Source: an uncultured Gammaproteobacteria bacterium (GTDB lineage: Bacteria; Pseudomonadota; Gammaproteobacteria; SZUA-229). Taken from it: a stretch of DNA of 64,000 nt. Positions 5,059 to 39,026 of this stretch are shown here, piece by piece. Position numbers and translations under genes: made by a program. Position 1 is the first letter of the stretch. Every line of letters begins with the position of its first letter. The stretch spans positions 25,659 through 89,658 of the forward strand of contig CBFCZV010000002.1 in assembly GCA_965602855.1 (NCBI GenBank). The letters run 5' to 3'. The notes under the pieces are model-generated. The model saw nothing but the letters and a program-made list of their open reading frames with translations. It searched no databases and was not told where the DNA came from.

Positions 5059-5131
5059 AATGAGCTCCTTAATATTCTAAACTTCTACGCTATTTTGGAT
5101 AGTTAATGCGCTAATAATAATGCTTTTATAT

Positions 5132-5905
5132 TTATTGATCCAATCGTCCCATCCAGTCAGCTACCCATCTAATCAACTCATCTTCTTTGCCTTCAAAAAA
5201 ATGATCGGCATTTTTTATGGCTAGCTGGCTGTAGCGTTGGTTGCCGGCTTCTTTTCCTGCTGCCATGCGTTTGTCGTTGTTGTCGAGTACGCTTTTCAGG
5301 TCGTCGCTGCCGTAGATGTCGAGTACGGGGGTGGTGATTTTTTTCAGGCTTTCGGTGTTCATCATGCGGGTATCAGCAAAGAGATCGGGCATACCTATGC
5401 CGACAAATCCCATTACATCTGTTTTGTTTTTTGACAGGTGGTAGGTGCCCATGGTGCTGCCCTGACTGTGGCCAATTAAAATAATTTTTTTATACTCTTC
5501 TTCTTTTAAGTAATTAATAGCGGCGTTGATGCGAGGGCTGACTTCTTCGTAGAGTGGGGCGTACTCGGTGTATTCTGCACCGTTATGCAGAACGGGCATT
5601 TGAATTGATAGTGTGTGCCAGCCATGTTCGGTGAGGCCGATGCGCAGGGGCCTGATGACCTGTTCCATGTCGGGGTGGATGCCGGTGCCGTGCATGATGA
5701 TGGCGGCGCGTTGCTGGTCTTCGGTGGCTTCAGTGAAGATGCTGAGGAATTCATTTTTGCCCTCGTCGAGCATGACTATTTCACCGTCCATTAAATTGTC
5801 TTCAATGGCTTCGGCCCAGCGTTTTTCTTTAGTGAGGTCAGAGGCGTTCACGTTTAGTGTGAAGCTGAATGCGATGAGGGTAATGATGGTTGAGATGGAT
5901 TTCAT
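5132..5905 (-). CDS. alpha/beta hydrolase, secreted
   Basis: 257 aa; signal peptide; GHSQG nucleophile elbow (GxSxG). Confidence 0.7.
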
Positions 5906-7827
5906 GAAGTTGTGCCTGCTATTTGATATTCGAGGAAAACGCCGGCAAATAAAACCAGCCCAAACCAGTTGTTGTTTAAAAATGCTTTAAAACATTGCGC
6001 AGGATCTCTGTGGCGAATTAAGTGCTGTTGCCAGATAGCGAATCCTGTGGCTAGTAGTACGCCAGTGTAGTAAAAAATACCGAGTCCTGCGTTTAGGCCG
6101 ATCATGATCAGGCAGAGTATGAGTGTACCCTGAATGATGCCGATGATGAGTTTATCTGCATCTTCGAAAAGAATAGCCGTGGATTTTACGCCGATTTTTA
6201 AATCATCTTCACGATCGACCATAGCGTACATGGTGTCATAAGCCGTTGCCCATAAAACGGTGGCGATAAATAACAACCAGGCGACCGGGTTGAGTTCATT
6301 GCTCTGTGCGGCGTAAGCCATGGGTACGGCCCAGCCGAAAGCTGCACCCAGATGCACTTGTGGTAAATAGTGGTGGCGCTTCATGAATGGGTAGCTGGCA
6401 GCGAGTATGAGTCCAACTACGGATAATACTATAGTGAGCGGGTTCATCAGTAGCACCAGACCAAAGGCAGCGAGACAAAGTACAGCAAATACGATTAGCG
6501 CTTCTTTCTCGGAGATTTTGCCCGAGGTCAGCGGGCGGTCTTTGGTGCGAGCGACCTTGCAGTCGATGTCTCTGTCGGCGTAATCGTTGATGGCGCAACC
6601 TGCTGAGCGCATCAGGAAAACTCCGGCGACAAAAACCAGCAATACATCGGTGTCGGGCCAGCCACCAGCGGCAATCCATAAGGCCATGAGTGTTGGCCAG
6701 AGCAGTAATAATATTCCAATGGGTTTGTCTAATCGAATGAGCAGCGCGTACTGTTTAGGTTTGTTAACTAGCTGTGATTTTTTTACTCGTTTGTTAACCT
6801 TGTGCAGGCTTAATTTTTGTTTAAAATAAAATATCTTTACCCGCAATGCGAGTTGCTTCCTGATACCACTTATGAATTTATTAGTGCCGGATAAGGCGTT
6901 TTTGATGACGGCTTTAATTCCGGTAAATATTGCTCTGAAGCCTTCATAGATGGATTGAAGCGCTATCTTGATGAAAGTGAAAAAGGCTTTTGCCGTGCTT
7001 ATAAGGCCAGCAAATATTGCCTTGATGCCTTCATAGATAGATTGAAGTACTACCTTGATGAAAGTGAAAAAGGCTCTGGCAGCAGCTTTAATTTCGGCAA
7101 CTAGTACTATTAAGCCTTTATAAATAGATCGAAGTACTGTCTTGATGAATGCGTAAAAAATTTTCGAAGCGGCTTTAATTCTGGCGACTAGTGTTTTAAT
7201 GCCTCTGCTGAGTGCGCGGAGAGCTGCCTTAATGAGTTCGTAAAAAGACTTAGCTACTGTTTTTATTTCAGCAAGTAGTGCATTAATGCCTTTGCCAAGT
7301 ACGTGGAGAACTGTCTTGATGAACTGGTAAATGGCTTTCGCAGCCGATTTTATTCCAGCCAGTATTGCCTTAATGCCTCTGCCGAGTACGCGGAGAGCTG
7401 TTCTGATGAGAGCATAAAAGACTTTTGTGGCGGCACTAACTTTGGCGAATATCGCTCTTGCTATTAAGAATAATAAGAAGAGACCAAACCTGATTAGGGC
7501 AAAAATAACTCTGGTCGTTAATATAATGCCGGCAGTCAGGGAGTAGAGCGCGGCTTTGCTAAAGGCAAAAAAGGCCTTAATACCGGCTTTAATTTTGCCG
7601 GGCAGTGGCTTCAGACTTAAGAGCAGTATGAAGAGAGTCATCTCGCCGATGGCAAAAATAACTTTGATGATTAATATAATTCCGTTGGTCAGTCGGGGTG
7701 GAATTATTGTTGTGAACAGCAGGGAGAGATTCAGCCAGACAAGGTCAAAAAGAACATTGGCGATTAATGTGGTGCCACTAATCAGCCGCTTTATAGCCTG
7801 TAAAAATTTGCTGAAAAAAGAAGTCAT
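5902..7827 (-). CDS. ubiA: 4-hydroxybenzoate polyprenyltransferase (UbiA) fused to a repeat-rich N-terminal extension
   Basis: The C-terminal ~290 aa aligns over its full length with E. coli UbiA ([18 protein letters not shown]...NDYADRxxD...YDTxYAMVDRxDD). The N-terminal ~350 aa is membrane-like plus six 29-aa basic amphipathic repeats. No canonical internal start codon lies between the repeat domain and the UbiA domain. Confidence 0.75.
6880..7460 (-). repeat. in-frame 87-bp tandem repeat array (at least 6 copies) inside the 5' half of ubiA
   Basis: A CTTGATGAA-type anchor recurs at 6967, 7054, 7141, 7228, 7315 and 7402 with an exact 87-nt period; it encodes xAKxFYxFIKTVLRxLxxGIKxLxAxIK units. 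Confidence 0.85.
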
Positions 7828-8601: not shown

Positions 8602-10515
8602 GTGATTGAAGAGCAACATAAAAAATCGAATGTAGTAAATTTGAATCAAAGCCTCAAAGATAGAGAGGTAGAGATAGATCTTTTACAGAAAACCTTTGCT
8701 GAGATCGGTGGTGAGCTCGATCTTGATAAGGTTTTTCAGATCGTTTCTGAGCGTGCTCGCTCTTTAGTGCGTGCAGAAACAATATTGATCCCCCTTCTTG
8801 ATGATAACTGTGAAACCTACACCTATCGTGGTGGTTCGGGTGAAAATACGGATGAAATCGTTGGTGAGTCGCTGCCACTGGAATTTGGTATTTGCGGCTG
8901 GGTCTGGAAGCACAAACGCCCCTGGTGGCGAGGTATGCTTGATGAGCTGGATGATGATGAAAGAAACCGTTGGGAAGAAGAAGCAGGCACGATGATTCTG
9001 GTGCCCTTGCAGGGACGGCGGCATTTTCTGGGTGGCATTGCTGGTATCAATAAAGTCGGTGGTGGTGAATTTACCCGCAGGGATTTAAATTTATTGCAGA
9101 TGTTTGCCAGTATCGTATCGATTGCCATCGAAAATGCCATGTCTGTGGACAGCATGGAGAAAGCCAGAAAGGTTAACGATGATTATCGGATGCGTCTGGA
9201 AGTTCTCAACAAGCAGTTGCTAGAGAGCACCAAGGAACTGGAGTACCTGTCGTTGTACGATACGGTAACCGGCCTGCCCAATCGCTCGTTATTTCATGAT
9301 CGCCTATCACGCAATATTTCTCAGGCAATCTTATCAGACGAACATATTGGTCTCCTGATAGTTGATCTTGATCGATTTAAGGAAATCAATGAGGCATTGG
9401 GCCATGAGCGGGGAGATTTACTGCTGAAGAAAATTGCACAGCGTTTTGAGCGGAATATGAAGTCCAGTGAAACACTGGCACGTTTAGGTGGTGATGAATT
9501 TATTATTGTGATGCCGGATTGCAATGAAGAAAAATCGATGCAGAGGGCAAAAGAATTTATAGCGATGTTTGATGAGGAGTTTAATATCGTCAATATGAAA
9601 ATACCCGTCAGCGCCAGTTTTGGCTTGTCCATATTTCCGACCCAGGGTGATGATGCTGGTAGTTTGTTGAGTCATGCGGATTCGGCTATGTATGAGGCAA
9701 AGACCAACTCTGTAAAACTATGCATGTATGACCCTGAGCGTGATTATATGACTAGAGGTCGTCTGGTGATGGAAGCTGGCATACGTCGTGCGCTGGAAGA
9801 AAAACAATTTGAGCTATATTACCAGCCAAAGATTTCTATTAAGGATGGTAAGTTAACTTCAGCAGAAGCATTGGGTCGTTGGGTAACAGAAGAACGGGGT
9901 GTTGTTTTACCTGATAGCTTTATAAAAGTGCTTGAGCAAAATGGTCTGCTTGATGATTATACTTATTGGGCTATTGAAACTGCGTTAAAGCAGGCAAAAG
10001 CCTGGGCTAGTGAGTATTCGTTACGTGTCGCAGTAAATTTGTCACCGCATACTTTGATAGATCCTAATTTTATAAAAAAAATGGATGAAATTATTGGTGA
10101 TAAAGAAAGTGGTAAACATCTCATTTTTGAAATTACTGAGAACCTGTTTTTGTCAGAATATAAATTATTGAGTGAAGTGCTTGAATATGTATGTAAGTTA
10201 GGTGTTCATTTATCTATTGATGATTATGGTACCGGCTATTCATCATTAAGTCGCTTAATCAAGCTACCGGTTAATGAGTTAAAGATTGATAAATCATTTG
10301 TTAAAAATGTGAATACTAATAAAGATGATGAGATAGTGGTGCGATCCACGATCGAGCTGGCTCACAATCTTGGTTTAACGGTAGTGGCTGAAGGCATAGA
10401 AGATGAAGAAGTTATGTGCTTCCTGAAAAAATACAATTGTGATATTGCTCAGGGTTTTTTGATCAGCAAGCCGCTACCGCTTGATGAGTTTGACAAGTTT
10501 TTAAAGGAATATTGA
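8602..10515 (+). CDS. GAF-GGDEF-EAL c-di-GMP signalling protein
   Basis: 637 aa; N-terminal GAF-like region; GGDEF active-site motif RLGGDEFIIV; EAL motif EALGRW with downstream DDYGTGYSS; GTG start. Confidence 0.85.
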   Translation: MIEEQHKKSNVVNLNQSLKDREVEIDLLQKTFAEIGGELDLDKVFQIVSERARSLVRAETILIPLLDDNCETYTYRGGSGENTDEIVGESLPLEFGICGWVWKHKRPWWRGMLDELDDDERNRWEEEAGTMILVPLQGRRHFLGGIAGINKVGGGEFTRRDLNLLQMFASIVSIAIENAMSVDSMEKARKVNDDYRMRLEVLNKQLLESTKELEYLSLYDTVTGLPNRSLFHDRLSRNISQAILSDEHIGLLIVDLDRFKEINEALGHERGDLLLKKIAQRFERNMKSSETLARLGGDEFIIVMPDCNEEKSMQRAKEFIAMFDEEFNIVNMKIPVSASFGLSIFPTQGDDAGSLLSHADSAMYEAKTNSVKLCMYDPERDYMTRGRLVMEAGIRRALEEKQFELYYQPKISIKDGKLTSAEALGRWVTEERGVVLPDSFIKVLEQNGLLDDYTYWAIETALKQAKAWASEYSLRVAVNLSPHTLIDPNFIKKMDEIIGDKESGKHLIFEITENLFLSEYKLLSEVLEYVCKLGVHLSIDDYGTGYSSLSRLIKLPVNELKIDKSFVKNVNTNKDDEIVVRSTIELAHNLGLTVVAEGIEDEEVMCFLKKYNCDIAQGFLISKPLPLDEFDKFLKEY

Positions 10516-12712: not shown

Positions 12713-13207
12713 GTGTATAAGAATATGAGACTAGCTCAGTATACCTTCCTTTTGTTGATGCTAACTTTTAGCCATATCAGCCTTGCGGCCGTTCAGGACG
12801 CGCCTTCGATCAAGCTGCCGACGGCCGATGGTCAGGTAGATCTGGCTACACTGAAGGGCAAAGTGGTTTATCTTGATTTCTGGGCATCCTGGTGTGAGCC
12901 GTGCAAGAAATCATTTCCCTGGATGCATAAGATGAAAAAGACTTATCAGGATAAAGGTTTCGAAGTGCTGGCGATTAGCCTTGATAAGGAAAGAAAACTG
13001 GCGGATGCATTTCTAAAAGGCATGGATATTAATTTTGTGGTTGCTTTTGATGATGCGGGGAATACCGCCAAAGAATATAAACTGCGCGGTATGCCGAGCA
13101 GTTACCTGATTGGACGTGATGGCAAACTCTATGCATCACATATTGGTTTTCGTGAGAAAGACAAAGCGAAAATGGAAAAAGCGATTAAGCAATTGTTAGC
13201 GCAGTAG
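12713..13207 (+). CDS. TlpA/ResA-like periplasmic thiol:disulfide oxidoreductase
   Basis: 164 aa; signal peptide; thioredoxin fold with WASWCEPCKK (CxxC). Confidence 0.8.
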   Translation: MYKNMRLAQYTFLLLMLTFSHISLAAVQDAPSIKLPTADGQVDLATLKGKVVYLDFWASWCEPCKKSFPWMHKMKKTYQDKGFEVLAISLDKERKLADAFLKGMDINFVVAFDDAGNTAKEYKLRGMPSSYLIGRDGKLYASHIGFREKDKAKMEKAIKQLLAQ

Positions 13208-13222
13208 TCACGGCAATAACCA

Positions 13223-13459
13223 TTGATTTTGATTATGAGGAGTATTATGAAACGCACAGCAACAATTATTTTATTAATGGCGCTTGCAGGTTGTTCCAGC
13301 ATGGGCGTAGAACCATGGGAGCGCGATCTGCTAGCCAAAGATTCGATGCAATTATCGCCTGATTATTTCGATAATTTTTACGATGAGCACATTTATTTCA
13401 GTAAAGAGGCCTCCAGTGGTGGTCAGGGCGTCGGCGGCGGAGGTTGCGGATGCAATTAA
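13223..13459 (+). CDS. DUF4266-type small lipoprotein
   Basis: 78 aa; lipobox LAGCSS; C-terminal GGGGCGCN tail that I recall as characteristic of DUF4266. Confidence 0.65.
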   Translation: MILIMRSIMKRTATIILLMALAGCSSMGVEPWERDLLAKDSMQLSPDYFDNFYDEHIYFSKEASSGGQGVGGGGCGCN

Positions 13460-14742: not shown

Positions 14743-14796
14743 TAATTGATTATGACGAAACAGGGATTGTTTCTGACATGCTGATCAATTAAGTTT

Positions 14797-14825
14797 AGGG
14801 CTTCTATAAAGAAGCCCTTTTTTTT
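14797..14825 (+). terminator. rho-independent terminator-like hairpin
   Basis: AGGGCTTCT-ATAA-AGAAGCCCT stem-loop followed by T8; it directly abuts the annotated ApbE ATG, which therefore has no SD. Confidence 0.5.
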
Positions 14826-19924: not shown

Positions 19925-21075
<1,151 letters not shown>

Positions 21076-21179
21076 TCAGATATGATAAATTTTTTAATTC
21101 CCCCTGACTGCTGCTATATAAGCGTTTTCTGGTATTTGACCGCATGCTTAGGGGTAATTGTTCCAGAGAGGAAGTGTTG

Positions 21180-25246
<4,067 letters not shown>

Positions 25247-37471: not shown

Positions 37472-38267
37472 TCGTGTTGTTAATGTAGAGCTGCCGTTGA
37501 TGAATGCAGATGTAAAACACCTGAAAAAACGCCTGCGACATAAGGTTGGTGAAGCGATTGTTCAGTATGGAATGATTGAGCACGGCGATCGTGTCATGGT
37601 GTGCATGTCTGGGGGCAAGGATAGCTACACTATGCTCGATATTCTGCTTGAGTTGCAGAAAAAAGCGCCGATTGATTTTGAGTTGATCGCGGTCAATCTT
37701 GATCAGAAGCAGCCGGGGTTTCCCGAGCACATCCTGCCTGATTACTTACGTGAGCTGGGTGTCGAGTTTCATATCATCGAACAGGATACATACAGCATTG
37801 TCAAAGAAAAAATACCCGAGGGCAAAACTACCTGTGGTTTATGCTCACGTTTGCGTCGCGGTATTTTGTATAACTTTGCCGATGAAATTGGTGCGACTAA
37901 AATTGCACTGGGACATCATCGTGATGACATGGTGGAAACGCTGTTTCTGAATATGTTCTTTAACGGGCAGCTTAAGTCGATGCCGCCCAAGTTGTTGAGC
38001 GATGATAAAAAGCATATGGTTATTCGACCGATGGCTTTATGTAAGGAAAGTGATATCGTGCGTTATGCTGATTTGCGACAGTTTCCGATTATTCCTTGCA
38101 ATTTATGTGGATCGCAGGAAAATATGCAGCGTAAAGTGGTCAAGTCGATGATTAAAAACTGGGAGGATGAATACCCGGGTAGAAGTGATATTATTATGCG
38201 GAGTCTGACTGATGTTAAGCCTTCGCATTTAGCAGATGCAGAGTTGTTTAATTTTGCGGGGTTGTGA
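37464..38267 (+). CDS. ttcA: tRNA 2-thiocytidine(32) synthetase
   Basis: Homology to E. coli TtcA starts at [10 protein letters not shown]... (ATG 37464); PP-loop SGGKDS; CxxC pairs. The ORF track extends it to 37389. Confidence 0.9.
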
Positions 38268-38280
38268 TAATCGATAGCAG

Positions 38281-38311
38281 AAATAAAAAGACCCCGGTAA
38301 AAACCGGGGTC
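38281..38311 (-). terminator. rho-independent terminator oriented for a minus-strand transcript
   Basis: GACCCCGG-TAAAAA-CCGGGGTC stem; the U-run (TTTTTATTT) follows only on the minus strand; no minus-strand CDS lies upstream of it. Confidence 0.6.
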
Positions 38312-38474
38312 TAGGGCCTTCCTTGATTGGTGATTGAGTCTCGCACTGTAGCTTGTCCGTCTTTTTCCTTAAGGTTCTTCCTTTAATATCTAACAGTCCC
38401 TTATCCGTATCCTTGATCTAAACATATGCTACGTTATTTCCCTATGTCCTTTGTTGACTCTTTCCCTTTGTCCC
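38281..38474 (-). ncRNA. candidate CsrB/RsmZ-family protein-sequestering sRNA
   Basis: The minus strand of the ttcA/dtd spacer is purine-rich with 11 GGA motifs (several as A-GGA) in ~190 nt. It ends in the terminator above, and a GATAAT -10-like hexamer (plus 38482-38487) sits about 7 nt upstream of the predicted 5' end. Confidence 0.4.
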
Positions 38475-38531
38475 TGTGGGGATTATCTGCGTGTTAGTGA
38501 TTTCATGCTATCAGTGGATTGGGTTACGTTG

Positions 38532-38549
38532 CGTAGGACTATTCCTACG
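38532..38549. promoter_or_regulatory. 18-bp inverted repeat CGTAGGACTATTCCTACG (GacA/UvrY upstream-activating-sequence-like)
   Basis: Perfect 7-N4-7 palindrome resembling TGTAAG-N6-CTTACA; centred about 66 bp upstream of the predicted sRNA 5' end. Confidence 0.35.
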
Positions 38550-38588
38550 TGGTGAATTCTTGCCGCATATTCAGCTGGAGAAGGCATT

Positions 38589-39026
38589 ATGATTGGTTTG
38601 CTTCAGCGTGTGACCCGTGCATCAGTGACGGTTGATGGAGAACGTATCGCACAAATAGGTGCTGGCTTGATGGTGCTGGTGGGTGTGGAAAAAAATGACA
38701 GTCAAGAGCAGGCCGAGCGTCTGGTTAAAAAATTGCTGGAATATCGTGTTTTTGCCGATGATGACGGCAAGATGAACTTGAGTGTGCTAGATATTGAGGG
38801 TGAAGTGTTGTTGGTGCCGCAGTTCACGCTGGCGGTGGATACCGGCAAGGGTAAGCGCCCCAGTTTTTCATCAGCAGCACCACCTGAACAAGGAGCTGAT
38901 TTATTTGTGGCAGTTGTTGATATAATGAGCCGGCAATTACCGCAGGTGCAAATGGGTCGGTTTGGTGCCGATATGGCGGTTGAGCTAATTAATGATGGTC
39001 CTGTGACCTTTTGGTTGCAGGTTTAA
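38589..39026 (+). CDS. dtd: D-aminoacyl-tRNA deacylase
   Basis: 145 aa; MIGLLQRV...; SQFTL motif region (PQFTLA). Confidence 0.9.
   Translation: MIGLLQRVTRASVTVDGERIAQIGAGLMVLVGVEKNDSQEQAERLVKKLLEYRVFADDDGKMNLSVLDIEGEVLLVPQFTLAVDTGKGKRPSFSSAAPPEQGADLFVAVVDIMSRQLPQVQMGRFGADMAVELINDGPVTFWLQV

Follow-up and report, generated by a model that had tools for sequence, protein, structure and literature searches.

The ttcA-dtd intergenic region

The DNA analysed here is a 64,000-nt stretch (hereafter, the window) of contig CBFCZV010000002.1 from the assembly GCA_965602855.1 of an uncultured Gammaproteobacteria bacterium, and our subject is a predicted small RNA (sRNA) gene on its minus strand, between ttcA and dtd. 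Both flanking genes are on the plus strand: ttcA, whose product matches the NCBIfam TtcA equivalog at 466 bits, ends with a stop codon at 38265-38267, and dtd, encoding D-aminoacyl-tRNA deacylase (Dtd; TIGR00256, 183 bits), starts at 38589. The spacer that separates them, 321 nt at 38268-38588, is intergenic and strongly CT-rich on its plus strand (GC skew -0.28, AT skew -0.44), as described in an earlier note made from the sequence alone. The two genes belong to an apparent transcription unit, lpxL-ttcA-dtd-hisBHAF, which is without a plus-strand terminator, and a scan of the region found no plus-strand promoter-like site between ttcA and dtd. On the opposite strand there is no open reading frame (ORF) of at least 20 amino acids within the body of the RNA, and for this reason a small-protein reading is rejected.

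Sequence and conservation together point to a conserved non-coding unit on the minus strand, with promoter-like elements of its own, that is predicted to run from about 38475 to a terminator at 38312-38281. The sRNA is placed at 38281-38475 (minus strand) with a length of about 195 nt, close to the 190 nt first estimated, and the covariance model R1 matches positions 38281-38477 at 224 bits. Its predicted 5′ end, A38475, lies 7 nt past the -10 hexamer, from whose position it was deduced, and its 3′ end falls within a U-tract. There are 18 distinct homologues from metagenome-assembled genomes (MAGs) and metagenomes, with covariance scores of 72-242 bits and a mean column identity of 65%, and in all 18 the element immediately precedes dtd, on the strand opposite to it.

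The RNA closes with a Rho-independent terminator, a stem-loop at 38289-38312 (minus strand) made of AGACCCCGGU and ACCGGGGUCU around a UUUU loop, with 10 pairs of which 7 are G-C. TTTTATTT comes after the stem only on the minus strand, and the terminator scan found no other terminator site in the region. The U-tract itself, UUUUAUUU at 38281-38288, is likewise confined to the minus strand, and the homologues keep it. Viewed from the plus strand (38265-38320), ttcA is without its own U-tract terminator, because the hairpin past its stop codon terminates minus-strand transcripts only. Plus-strand read-through from ttcA would be antisense to the sRNA.

An array of A(N)GGA motifs under selection

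The minus strand of 38281-38480 carries 11 GGA triplets, as counted before, and all 11 are in AGGA or A[CGT]GGA form, the motif used by CSRNA_FIND (Kulkarni et al., 2006; PMC1488887). The motifs span 38320-38473 (minus strand), with their first G at 38473, 38465, 38449, 38441, 38412, 38406, 38399, 38381, 38368, 38358 and 38322, in an RNA that is 59-65% purine. This number lies far above background. GGA triplets per 200-nt window average 1.63 on the minus strand (standard deviation 1.35), where the runner-up window has 7; no window of the plus strand exceeds 9. For the stricter AGGA/ARGGA pattern, the density of 11 per 180 nt stands against no more than 6 in the rest of the window and a maximum of 7 per 180 nt among 1.19 million windows drawn from 76 loci of other taxa. 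The homologues have 10-18 A(N)GGA motifs each (11 in the window copy), of which 9-15 are of the AGGA/ARGGA type.

Nine of the motif sites are conserved in position across the 18 homologues, and the way in which they vary is specific. The column entropy at these sites is 0.17 bit for the A at position -2, 1.38 bits for N, 0.15 bit for GGA and 1.09 bits for the following base, X; the GGA columns, at 0.15 bit, are much better conserved than the other columns of the RNA body, at 0.81 bit (Mann-Whitney p = 7e-7). Structures of RsmE bound to RNA have given rise to the A(N)GGAX rule, by which the protein reads A and GGA, with N and X looping out and free to be any base (PMC4005645). In the alignment, selection acts on the A(N)GGA motifs rather than on the sequence between them. 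The pattern at the nine sites agrees with this rule and is not easily accounted for by a base-pairing role, a coding sequence or an element of the plus strand; we regard it as the strongest single piece of evidence for reading the RNA as a CsrA sponge.

One homologue (locus L107, 1653-1887) has 235 nt and 18 GGA triplets, some of them contributed by an insertion of about 40 nt. Judging from this case, motifs seem to be added to the array through insertions or duplications, which is the expected route of growth for such arrays.

RNA structure and strand assignment

Two helices are conserved across the family. In the terminator stem, 95% of cells are paired in the 18 sequences, with a G-C pair replaced by A-U in 8 of them, and these compensatory changes, along with the terminator scan, bear out the proposal of a terminator hairpin whose U-run exists on the minus strand only. 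The second helix, predicted by RNAalifold, is a long-range one of 5 bp formed by GAGUC at 38456-38460 (5′ arm) and GACUC at 38336-38340 (3′ arm), both on the minus strand. Most of the motif array lies inside this helix, which has 100% of its cells paired across the 18 sequences; three of these have C-G in place of U-A, and three have G-U in place of A-U. In controls, sliding the partners cuts pairing from 90% to 26-48%, and none of 500 shuffles reaches the observed covariation score. Read on the plus strand, several G-U pairs of the terminator turn into A-C mismatches; together, the one-sided U-tract and the G-U pairs in both conserved helices fix the minus strand as that of the element.

By partition-function folding, the GGA motifs are predicted to be largely accessible rather than buried in stems. 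Their mean probability of being unpaired, P(unpaired), is 0.59 versus 0.49 in dinucleotide-preserving shuffles, with per-site means of 0.40-0.69, and 17 of the 18 sequences exceed their own shuffle mean. In nine close homologues, 7-9 of the 11-13 motifs in each sequence have a P(unpaired) above 0.5. Most motifs are predicted to lie in free stretches, not in short hairpin loops such as RsmZ and CsrB typically have, and RNAalifold found no conserved local hairpins presenting GGA in the 18-sequence alignment. A GAUC/GAUY stem around three of the motifs was considered and rejected, as it has no consistent alignment.

The promoter and the upstream inverted repeat

Upstream of the RNA, on the minus strand, the -10 hexamer GATAAT (38482-38487) takes the form CATAAT or CATACT in homologues, with A2, T3, A4 and T6 invariant in the 18. 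The -35 region is unlike TTGACA, matching it at 3 of 6 positions at best, and such a poor -35 fits an activator-dependent promoter. The -35 region is instead covered by a conserved block, CCCAATCCACTGATAGC at 38507-38523 (minus strand), which reads CcCAAtCcaCTGATAGC across the family and in which C.GATAG (38514-38508, at about -39 to -33) is invariant in the 18 promoters. The reverse complement of the block, TATCAGnnnnTTG, resembles an IHF site.

Farther upstream lies the candidate upstream activating sequence (UAS) of GacA/UvrY type, an inverted repeat at 38532-38549 that reads CGTAGGA-CTAT-TCCTACG on the plus strand. Its centre is at -65.5 relative to the predicted A38475, about where the earlier note had put it (66 bp), and the GATAAT hexamer with its poor -35 was also described correctly there. 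The repeat had been called a perfect 18-bp palindrome, which it is not: 7-bp arms, CGTAGGA and TCCTACG, flank a 4-bp centre, CTAT, that is not self-complementary. Across the family the consensus is TGTAGG-N6-CCTACA, with GTAGG and CCTAC invariant in the 18 promoters, and the proposed GacA/UvrY architecture stands in this form, at a fixed spacing. The box bound by GacA and UvrY is TGTAAGN6CTTACA (PMC3171408, PMC8523701), and the family repeat agrees with it at 10 of 12 positions, differing by a symmetric change of A to G and T to C; in the window copy, the outer T and A of the box are additionally replaced by C and G.

A degenerate GacA-box pattern with 2 mismatches allowed is not rare by chance in 64 kb, so the repeat in the window is not significant alone and the significance of the site rests on its conservation. 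All 18 promoters align without gaps from the inverted repeat through the -10 hexamer. The distance from the centre of the repeat to the last base of the -10 hexamer is exactly 58.5 nt in each of the nine close homologues measured, and the gap-free alignment implies the same spacing in the remaining ones. GTAGG-N6-CCTAC occurs once in every locus that bears the sRNA and in none of 85 loci that do not. The candidate UAS is only some 40 bp from the dtd start codon, and within those 40 nt the homologues keep the ribosome-binding site, the rest being unconserved.

At csrB and csrC, UvrY is known to bind an inverted repeat of 18 nt. The csrB genes of E. coli and Salmonella also have TGTAGGAGA as a conserved accessory half-site, and a second UvrY cross-link has been found near the -35 of csrB and csrC (Zere et al.; PMC4682653).

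Homologues and distribution

The homologues were gathered by three routes. A scan of species-representative genomes with TtcA gave four Gammaproteobacteria MAGs with a TtcA identity of 80-90%, and in all four the element is complete, with its location and direction unchanged. When metagenomes were scanned with a pattern taken from the 3′ portion of the RNA, 14 loci were obtained, six of which have the element (four new homologues and two copies of contigs already found); the other eight were discarded as chance matches inside unrelated DNA. A search with the Dtd protein listed 120 clusters, down to 68% identity, and among the ten looked up, nine carry the element upstream of dtd on the opposite strand. 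As Dtd identity drops from 84% to 69%, the covariance scores drop from 207 to 72 bits. Genomes with the element include GenBank JAOUKV01, JAGLQT01, JAQICG01, JAOUPA01, GCA_032251315.1 and GCA_041590795.1, besides the 104-kb contig of the window, and the contigs come from San Francisco Bay sediment and from hydrothermal samples.

The element keeps its place next to dtd when the gene on its other side changes. In four loci ttcA is replaced or absent: a TylF-type methyltransferase gene takes its place at L103 (sRNA homologue at 981-1177), and in L105, L107 and L109 (sRNA homologues at 1688-1886, 1653-1887 and 1695-1891) ttcA is absent and lpxL is the neighbour. The element thus persists without ttcA, which links it to dtd and not to ttcA. 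In L105 (1589-1744) and L107 (1531-1812), the public annotation has ORFs of 51 and 93 amino acids, neither with a Pfam match, opposite the sRNA strand; they are probably spurious, having been called where the gene is one for a non-coding RNA.

The loci without the element include the following two. One is the ttcA locus of MAG SZUA-116 (L005), where the DNA 3′ of ttcA differs and has a long inverted repeat, GTAGGTCGGGTTACG...CGTAACCCGACCTAC, about 300-540 nt downstream (~5090-5330), which looks like a repetitive extragenic palindromic (REP) element or a miniature inverted-repeat transposable element (MITE). The other is a dtd locus (L096) with 69% Dtd identity and a different synteny, on contig CDLCYU010000057.1 of GCA_975852575.1. 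That assembly is labelled Kaarinaea lacus, a cyanobacterium (Nostocales); the neighbours of dtd, BipA and SirB, are typical of Proteobacteria, and the contig may be a contamination of the assembly.

No second copy of the sRNA was found with model R1 or the broader R2 in the window or in the approximately 700 kb of other loci, which include the 76 TtcA loci of other taxa. Three weak R1 matches in the window (13155-13276, 14752-14825 and 21038-21107; E 0.1-0.2) are AT-rich spacers that vanish with R2, and were set aside.

Membership in the Csr/Rsm class

On this evidence, the gene in the spacer probably encodes an sRNA of about 195 nt that is activated by a GacA-type regulator and acts as a CsrA sponge of the Csr/Rsm class. 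We class it as a new sequence family within a known kind of sponge, predicted in an uncultured lineage of sediment and hydrothermal Gammaproteobacteria. The Csr/Rsm-type sponge proposed in the earlier note thereby gains the support of 18 homologues, of selection on A(N)GGA, of predicted accessibility, of the strand evidence and of a conserved upstream repeat.

Five sequence criteria have been used to define sRNAs that regulate CsrA (Kulkarni et al., 2006; PMC1488887), and each has its counterpart at this locus. The gene is in an intergenic position, the 321-nt ttcA-dtd spacer; AGGA/ARGGA reaches 11 per 180 nt against a background of no more than 7; a Rho-independent terminator is formed by the 10-bp stem and UUUUAUUU; the GGA motifs are placed in loops or free regions by fold prediction; and a conserved upstream sequence of the UvrY/GacA-box type, TGTAGG-N6-CCTACA, is present in all 18. 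To these, the A(N)GGAX test for selection (A and GGA fixed, N and X free) adds agreement at nine sites.

Several findings weigh against this interpretation. The Rfam models CsrB, CsrC, RsmY, PrrB_RsmZ and rsmX have no match at E <= 10 on 38150-38700, so that membership in the Rfam CsrB/CsrC/RsmX/Y/Z sequence families, raised as a point to check in the earlier note, does not hold. A search with tblastn of E. coli CsrA against the window and all fetched loci did not find csrA, and no gacA/uvrY or gacS lies in the window or those loci; the only response regulator checked among the ORFs of the window, a 219-aa ORF beside a QseC-like kinase, is of OmpR type. For the window, this agrees with the earlier statement that neither csrA nor gacA lies there. 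The gain in accessibility over the shuffles is modest. Few motifs are in classical short hairpin loops, RNAalifold shows little conserved local structure, and only 69% of cells are paired in the sole candidate for a hairpin presenting GGA, which joins alignment columns 192-195 with 206-209 on the 5′ side of the terminator. At the promoter, the sponge reading offers no account of the invariant C.GATAG over the -35, and the half-site TGTAGG differs from the canonical TGTAAG, such that a different regulator could bind.

The Rfam results extend beyond the spacer: a search at gathering scores gave no matches in the whole window, and the Csr/Rsm families gave none at E <= 1 on eight homologous loci. 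Csr/Rsm sponge RNAs are not conserved in sequence between lineages (PMC8523701), and since members of the class are not conserved in this way, the lack of an Rfam match is normal. Permissive Rfam matches in 38150-38700, such as those to BSnc120 and sroD, are weak, driven by the terminator and far below the gathering score, and were rejected. As for the regulators, the BarA/UvrY system has been described as well conserved in Gammaproteobacteria (PMC3171408). Two GGDEF-EAL proteins in the window, encoded at 8602-10515 and 21144-23768 (both plus strand), match the model of CsrD at 114-125 bits, where the cut-off is 663. They were considered as CsrD, the RNase E specificity factor in CsrB/C decay, and rejected on these scores, as ordinary enzymes of cyclic di-GMP metabolism.

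Alternative explanations

A purine content of 59-65% and a predicted, largely single-stranded state are features that the RNA would also show if it bound another protein, for example Hfq through A-R-N repeats in the manner of CrcZ, or if it base-paired with CU-rich targets. That the Rfam Csr/Rsm models found no match is also in favour of such a function, and the assignment to CsrA is made from sequence. We nevertheless consider this alternative decidedly unlikely: at nine sites A and GGA are fixed and N and X are free, which is the CsrA/RsmE rule and is unlike either the A-rich Hfq/Crc motif or a contiguous seed, and the upstream repeat is of the GacA/UvrY type. CrcZ-type genes have RpoN/CbrB promoters.

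The position of the gene raises another possibility, that of a cis-antisense RNA, or of transcriptional interference, gating dtd-hisBHAF through collision or pairing with read-through from ttcA. It draws on the terminator that works on the minus strand only, on the region between ttcA and dtd having no plus-strand promoter-like site, on the constancy with which the RNA gene stays with dtd (18 of 18, even when the upstream gene changes) and on the short distance, about 40 bp, that separates the UAS from the start codon of dtd. Such a device would have no need of nine A(N)GGA motifs, a long-range helix or a GacA-type box, and would not preserve them, which makes it very unlikely indeed as the explanation of the gene; antisense or interference effects could arise as an added side effect of the location, alongside sponge activity.

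That the region is simply the CU-rich 5′ untranslated region or leader of dtd, with coincidental features on the minus strand, is scarcely credible, even though the spacer is rich in C and T on that strand and dtd comes directly after it, since the earlier note's own counter-case is contradicted by a U-tract found on the minus strand only, by G-U pairs of both conserved helices that become A-C mismatches on the plus strand, by a -10 and UAS set at fixed spacing for minus-strand transcription, and by the 40 nt between the UAS and dtd being unconserved save for the ribosome-binding site.

One further reading would extend the CsrA sponge rather than replace it. The RNA gene is in every case some 40 bp from the start of dtd, and besides sponging, the locus might couple Gac-type signalling directly to the expression of dtd and histidine biosynthesis, by way of a shared bidirectional UAS or through antisense or interference effects, or C.GATAG might be the mark of a second regulator or of a sigma factor dedicated to these sRNAs; we regard these additions as unlikely.

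Proposed mechanism

The CsrA-sponge interpretation suggests the following sequence of events. A response regulator of the GacA/UvrY type would bind TGTAGG-N6-CCTACA at about -65 and, once bound, would activate a promoter in which a good -10 (CATAAT) stands without a canonical -35. The minus-strand transcript is predicted to expose 11 A(N)GGA motifs, mostly in the loop closed by the 5-bp long-range helix. Each dimer of CsrA/RsmA would bind two motifs, allowing one RNA to hold several dimers, and the sequestered CsrA would be kept off the ribosome-binding sites of its target mRNAs. A higher level of the RNA would then bring relief of CsrA-mediated control.

Comparison with known systems

The predicted gene resembles rsmX, rsmY and rsmZ of Pseudomonas in its many A(N)GGA motifs, its Rho-independent terminator, its palindromic UAS of the TGTAAGN6CTTACA type and its weak -35. 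The number of motifs is comparable, with 11 in about 195 nt here and 8 GGA in the 127 nt of RsmZ of P. fluorescens (PMC4005645). It differs from RsmX/Y/Z in having no detectable homology to them (none by Rfam at E <= 10) and in being longer. The half-site is TGTAGG, not TGTAAG, the gene lies upstream of dtd, and the motifs are predicted to lie in a largely unpaired, purine-rich stretch clamped by a 5-bp helix, with few in hairpin loops.

The functional architecture predicted here is also that of CsrB and CsrC of E. coli and Salmonella, which depend on BarA-UvrY and likewise have an 18-nt inverted repeat. CsrC, at approximately 245 nt, is close in size to our RNA, and CsrB is about twice as long and has more of its motifs in hairpin loops. 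The inverted repeat of E. coli is centred at about -183, and csrB needs IHF (PMC4682653); the repeat here, at about -65, is in a different position, and there is no sequence homology with CsrB or CsrC.

The closest parallels in kind are lineage-specific Csr sRNAs, namely the predictions of CSRNA_FIND, CsrB1/2 of Shewanella, CsrB/CsrC of Marinomonas mediterranea and Pf1-3 of Pseudoalteromonas, which share the same five criteria (PMC1488887, PMC3171408, PMC8523701). As with these, the sequence of the new family is not conserved beyond its own lineage. Unlike them, it comes from an uncultured lineage represented by MAGs and metagenomes, is known here from sequence, and is present as a single copy in the DNA searched.

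CrcZ and CrcY, the Hfq/Crc sponges of Pseudomonas, are likewise of the protein-sponge type with repeated purine-rich motifs. CrcZ carries A-rich AANAANAA motifs and has a CbrB/RpoN promoter. The predicted RNA is unlike them in its repeated unit, A(N)GGA, and in its promoter, which combines a sigma-70-type -10 with a GacA-type box. Judged from its sequence, the new family differs from the textbook members of the Csr/Rsm class in three respects: its TGTAGG half-site, a motif array predicted to be largely unpaired and clamped by a long-range helix, and its fixed position at dtd.

Additional observations in the window

Elsewhere in the window, a 641-aa ORF at 5902-7827 (minus strand) has a match to UbiA (4-hydroxybenzoate polyprenyltransferase) that is confined to residues 359-634, leaving its N-terminal ~350 residues unmatched. 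It could be a fusion, or an over-extended ORF across two genes such as ubiC and ubiA.

Significance

In Gammaproteobacteria, CsrA exerts global control over carbon metabolism, motility, biofilm formation and secondary metabolism, and its activity is set by the Csr/Rsm sponge RNAs, which form the output of the Gac/BarA-UvrY pathway. Systems of this kind and the way they work are well established, and the present result is a solid and useful annotation that will not surprise specialists. Because sponge RNAs are not conserved across lineages, they have to be solved clade by clade, and uncultured clades are usually without annotated ones. For one such clade, this work provides a high-confidence family of 18 sequences with its alignment, a covariance model and a variant of the GacA box; compared with one another, its members also make a clean natural example of the A(N)GGAX rule. 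It could enter Rfam and be used to annotate MAGs of marine and estuarine sediments.

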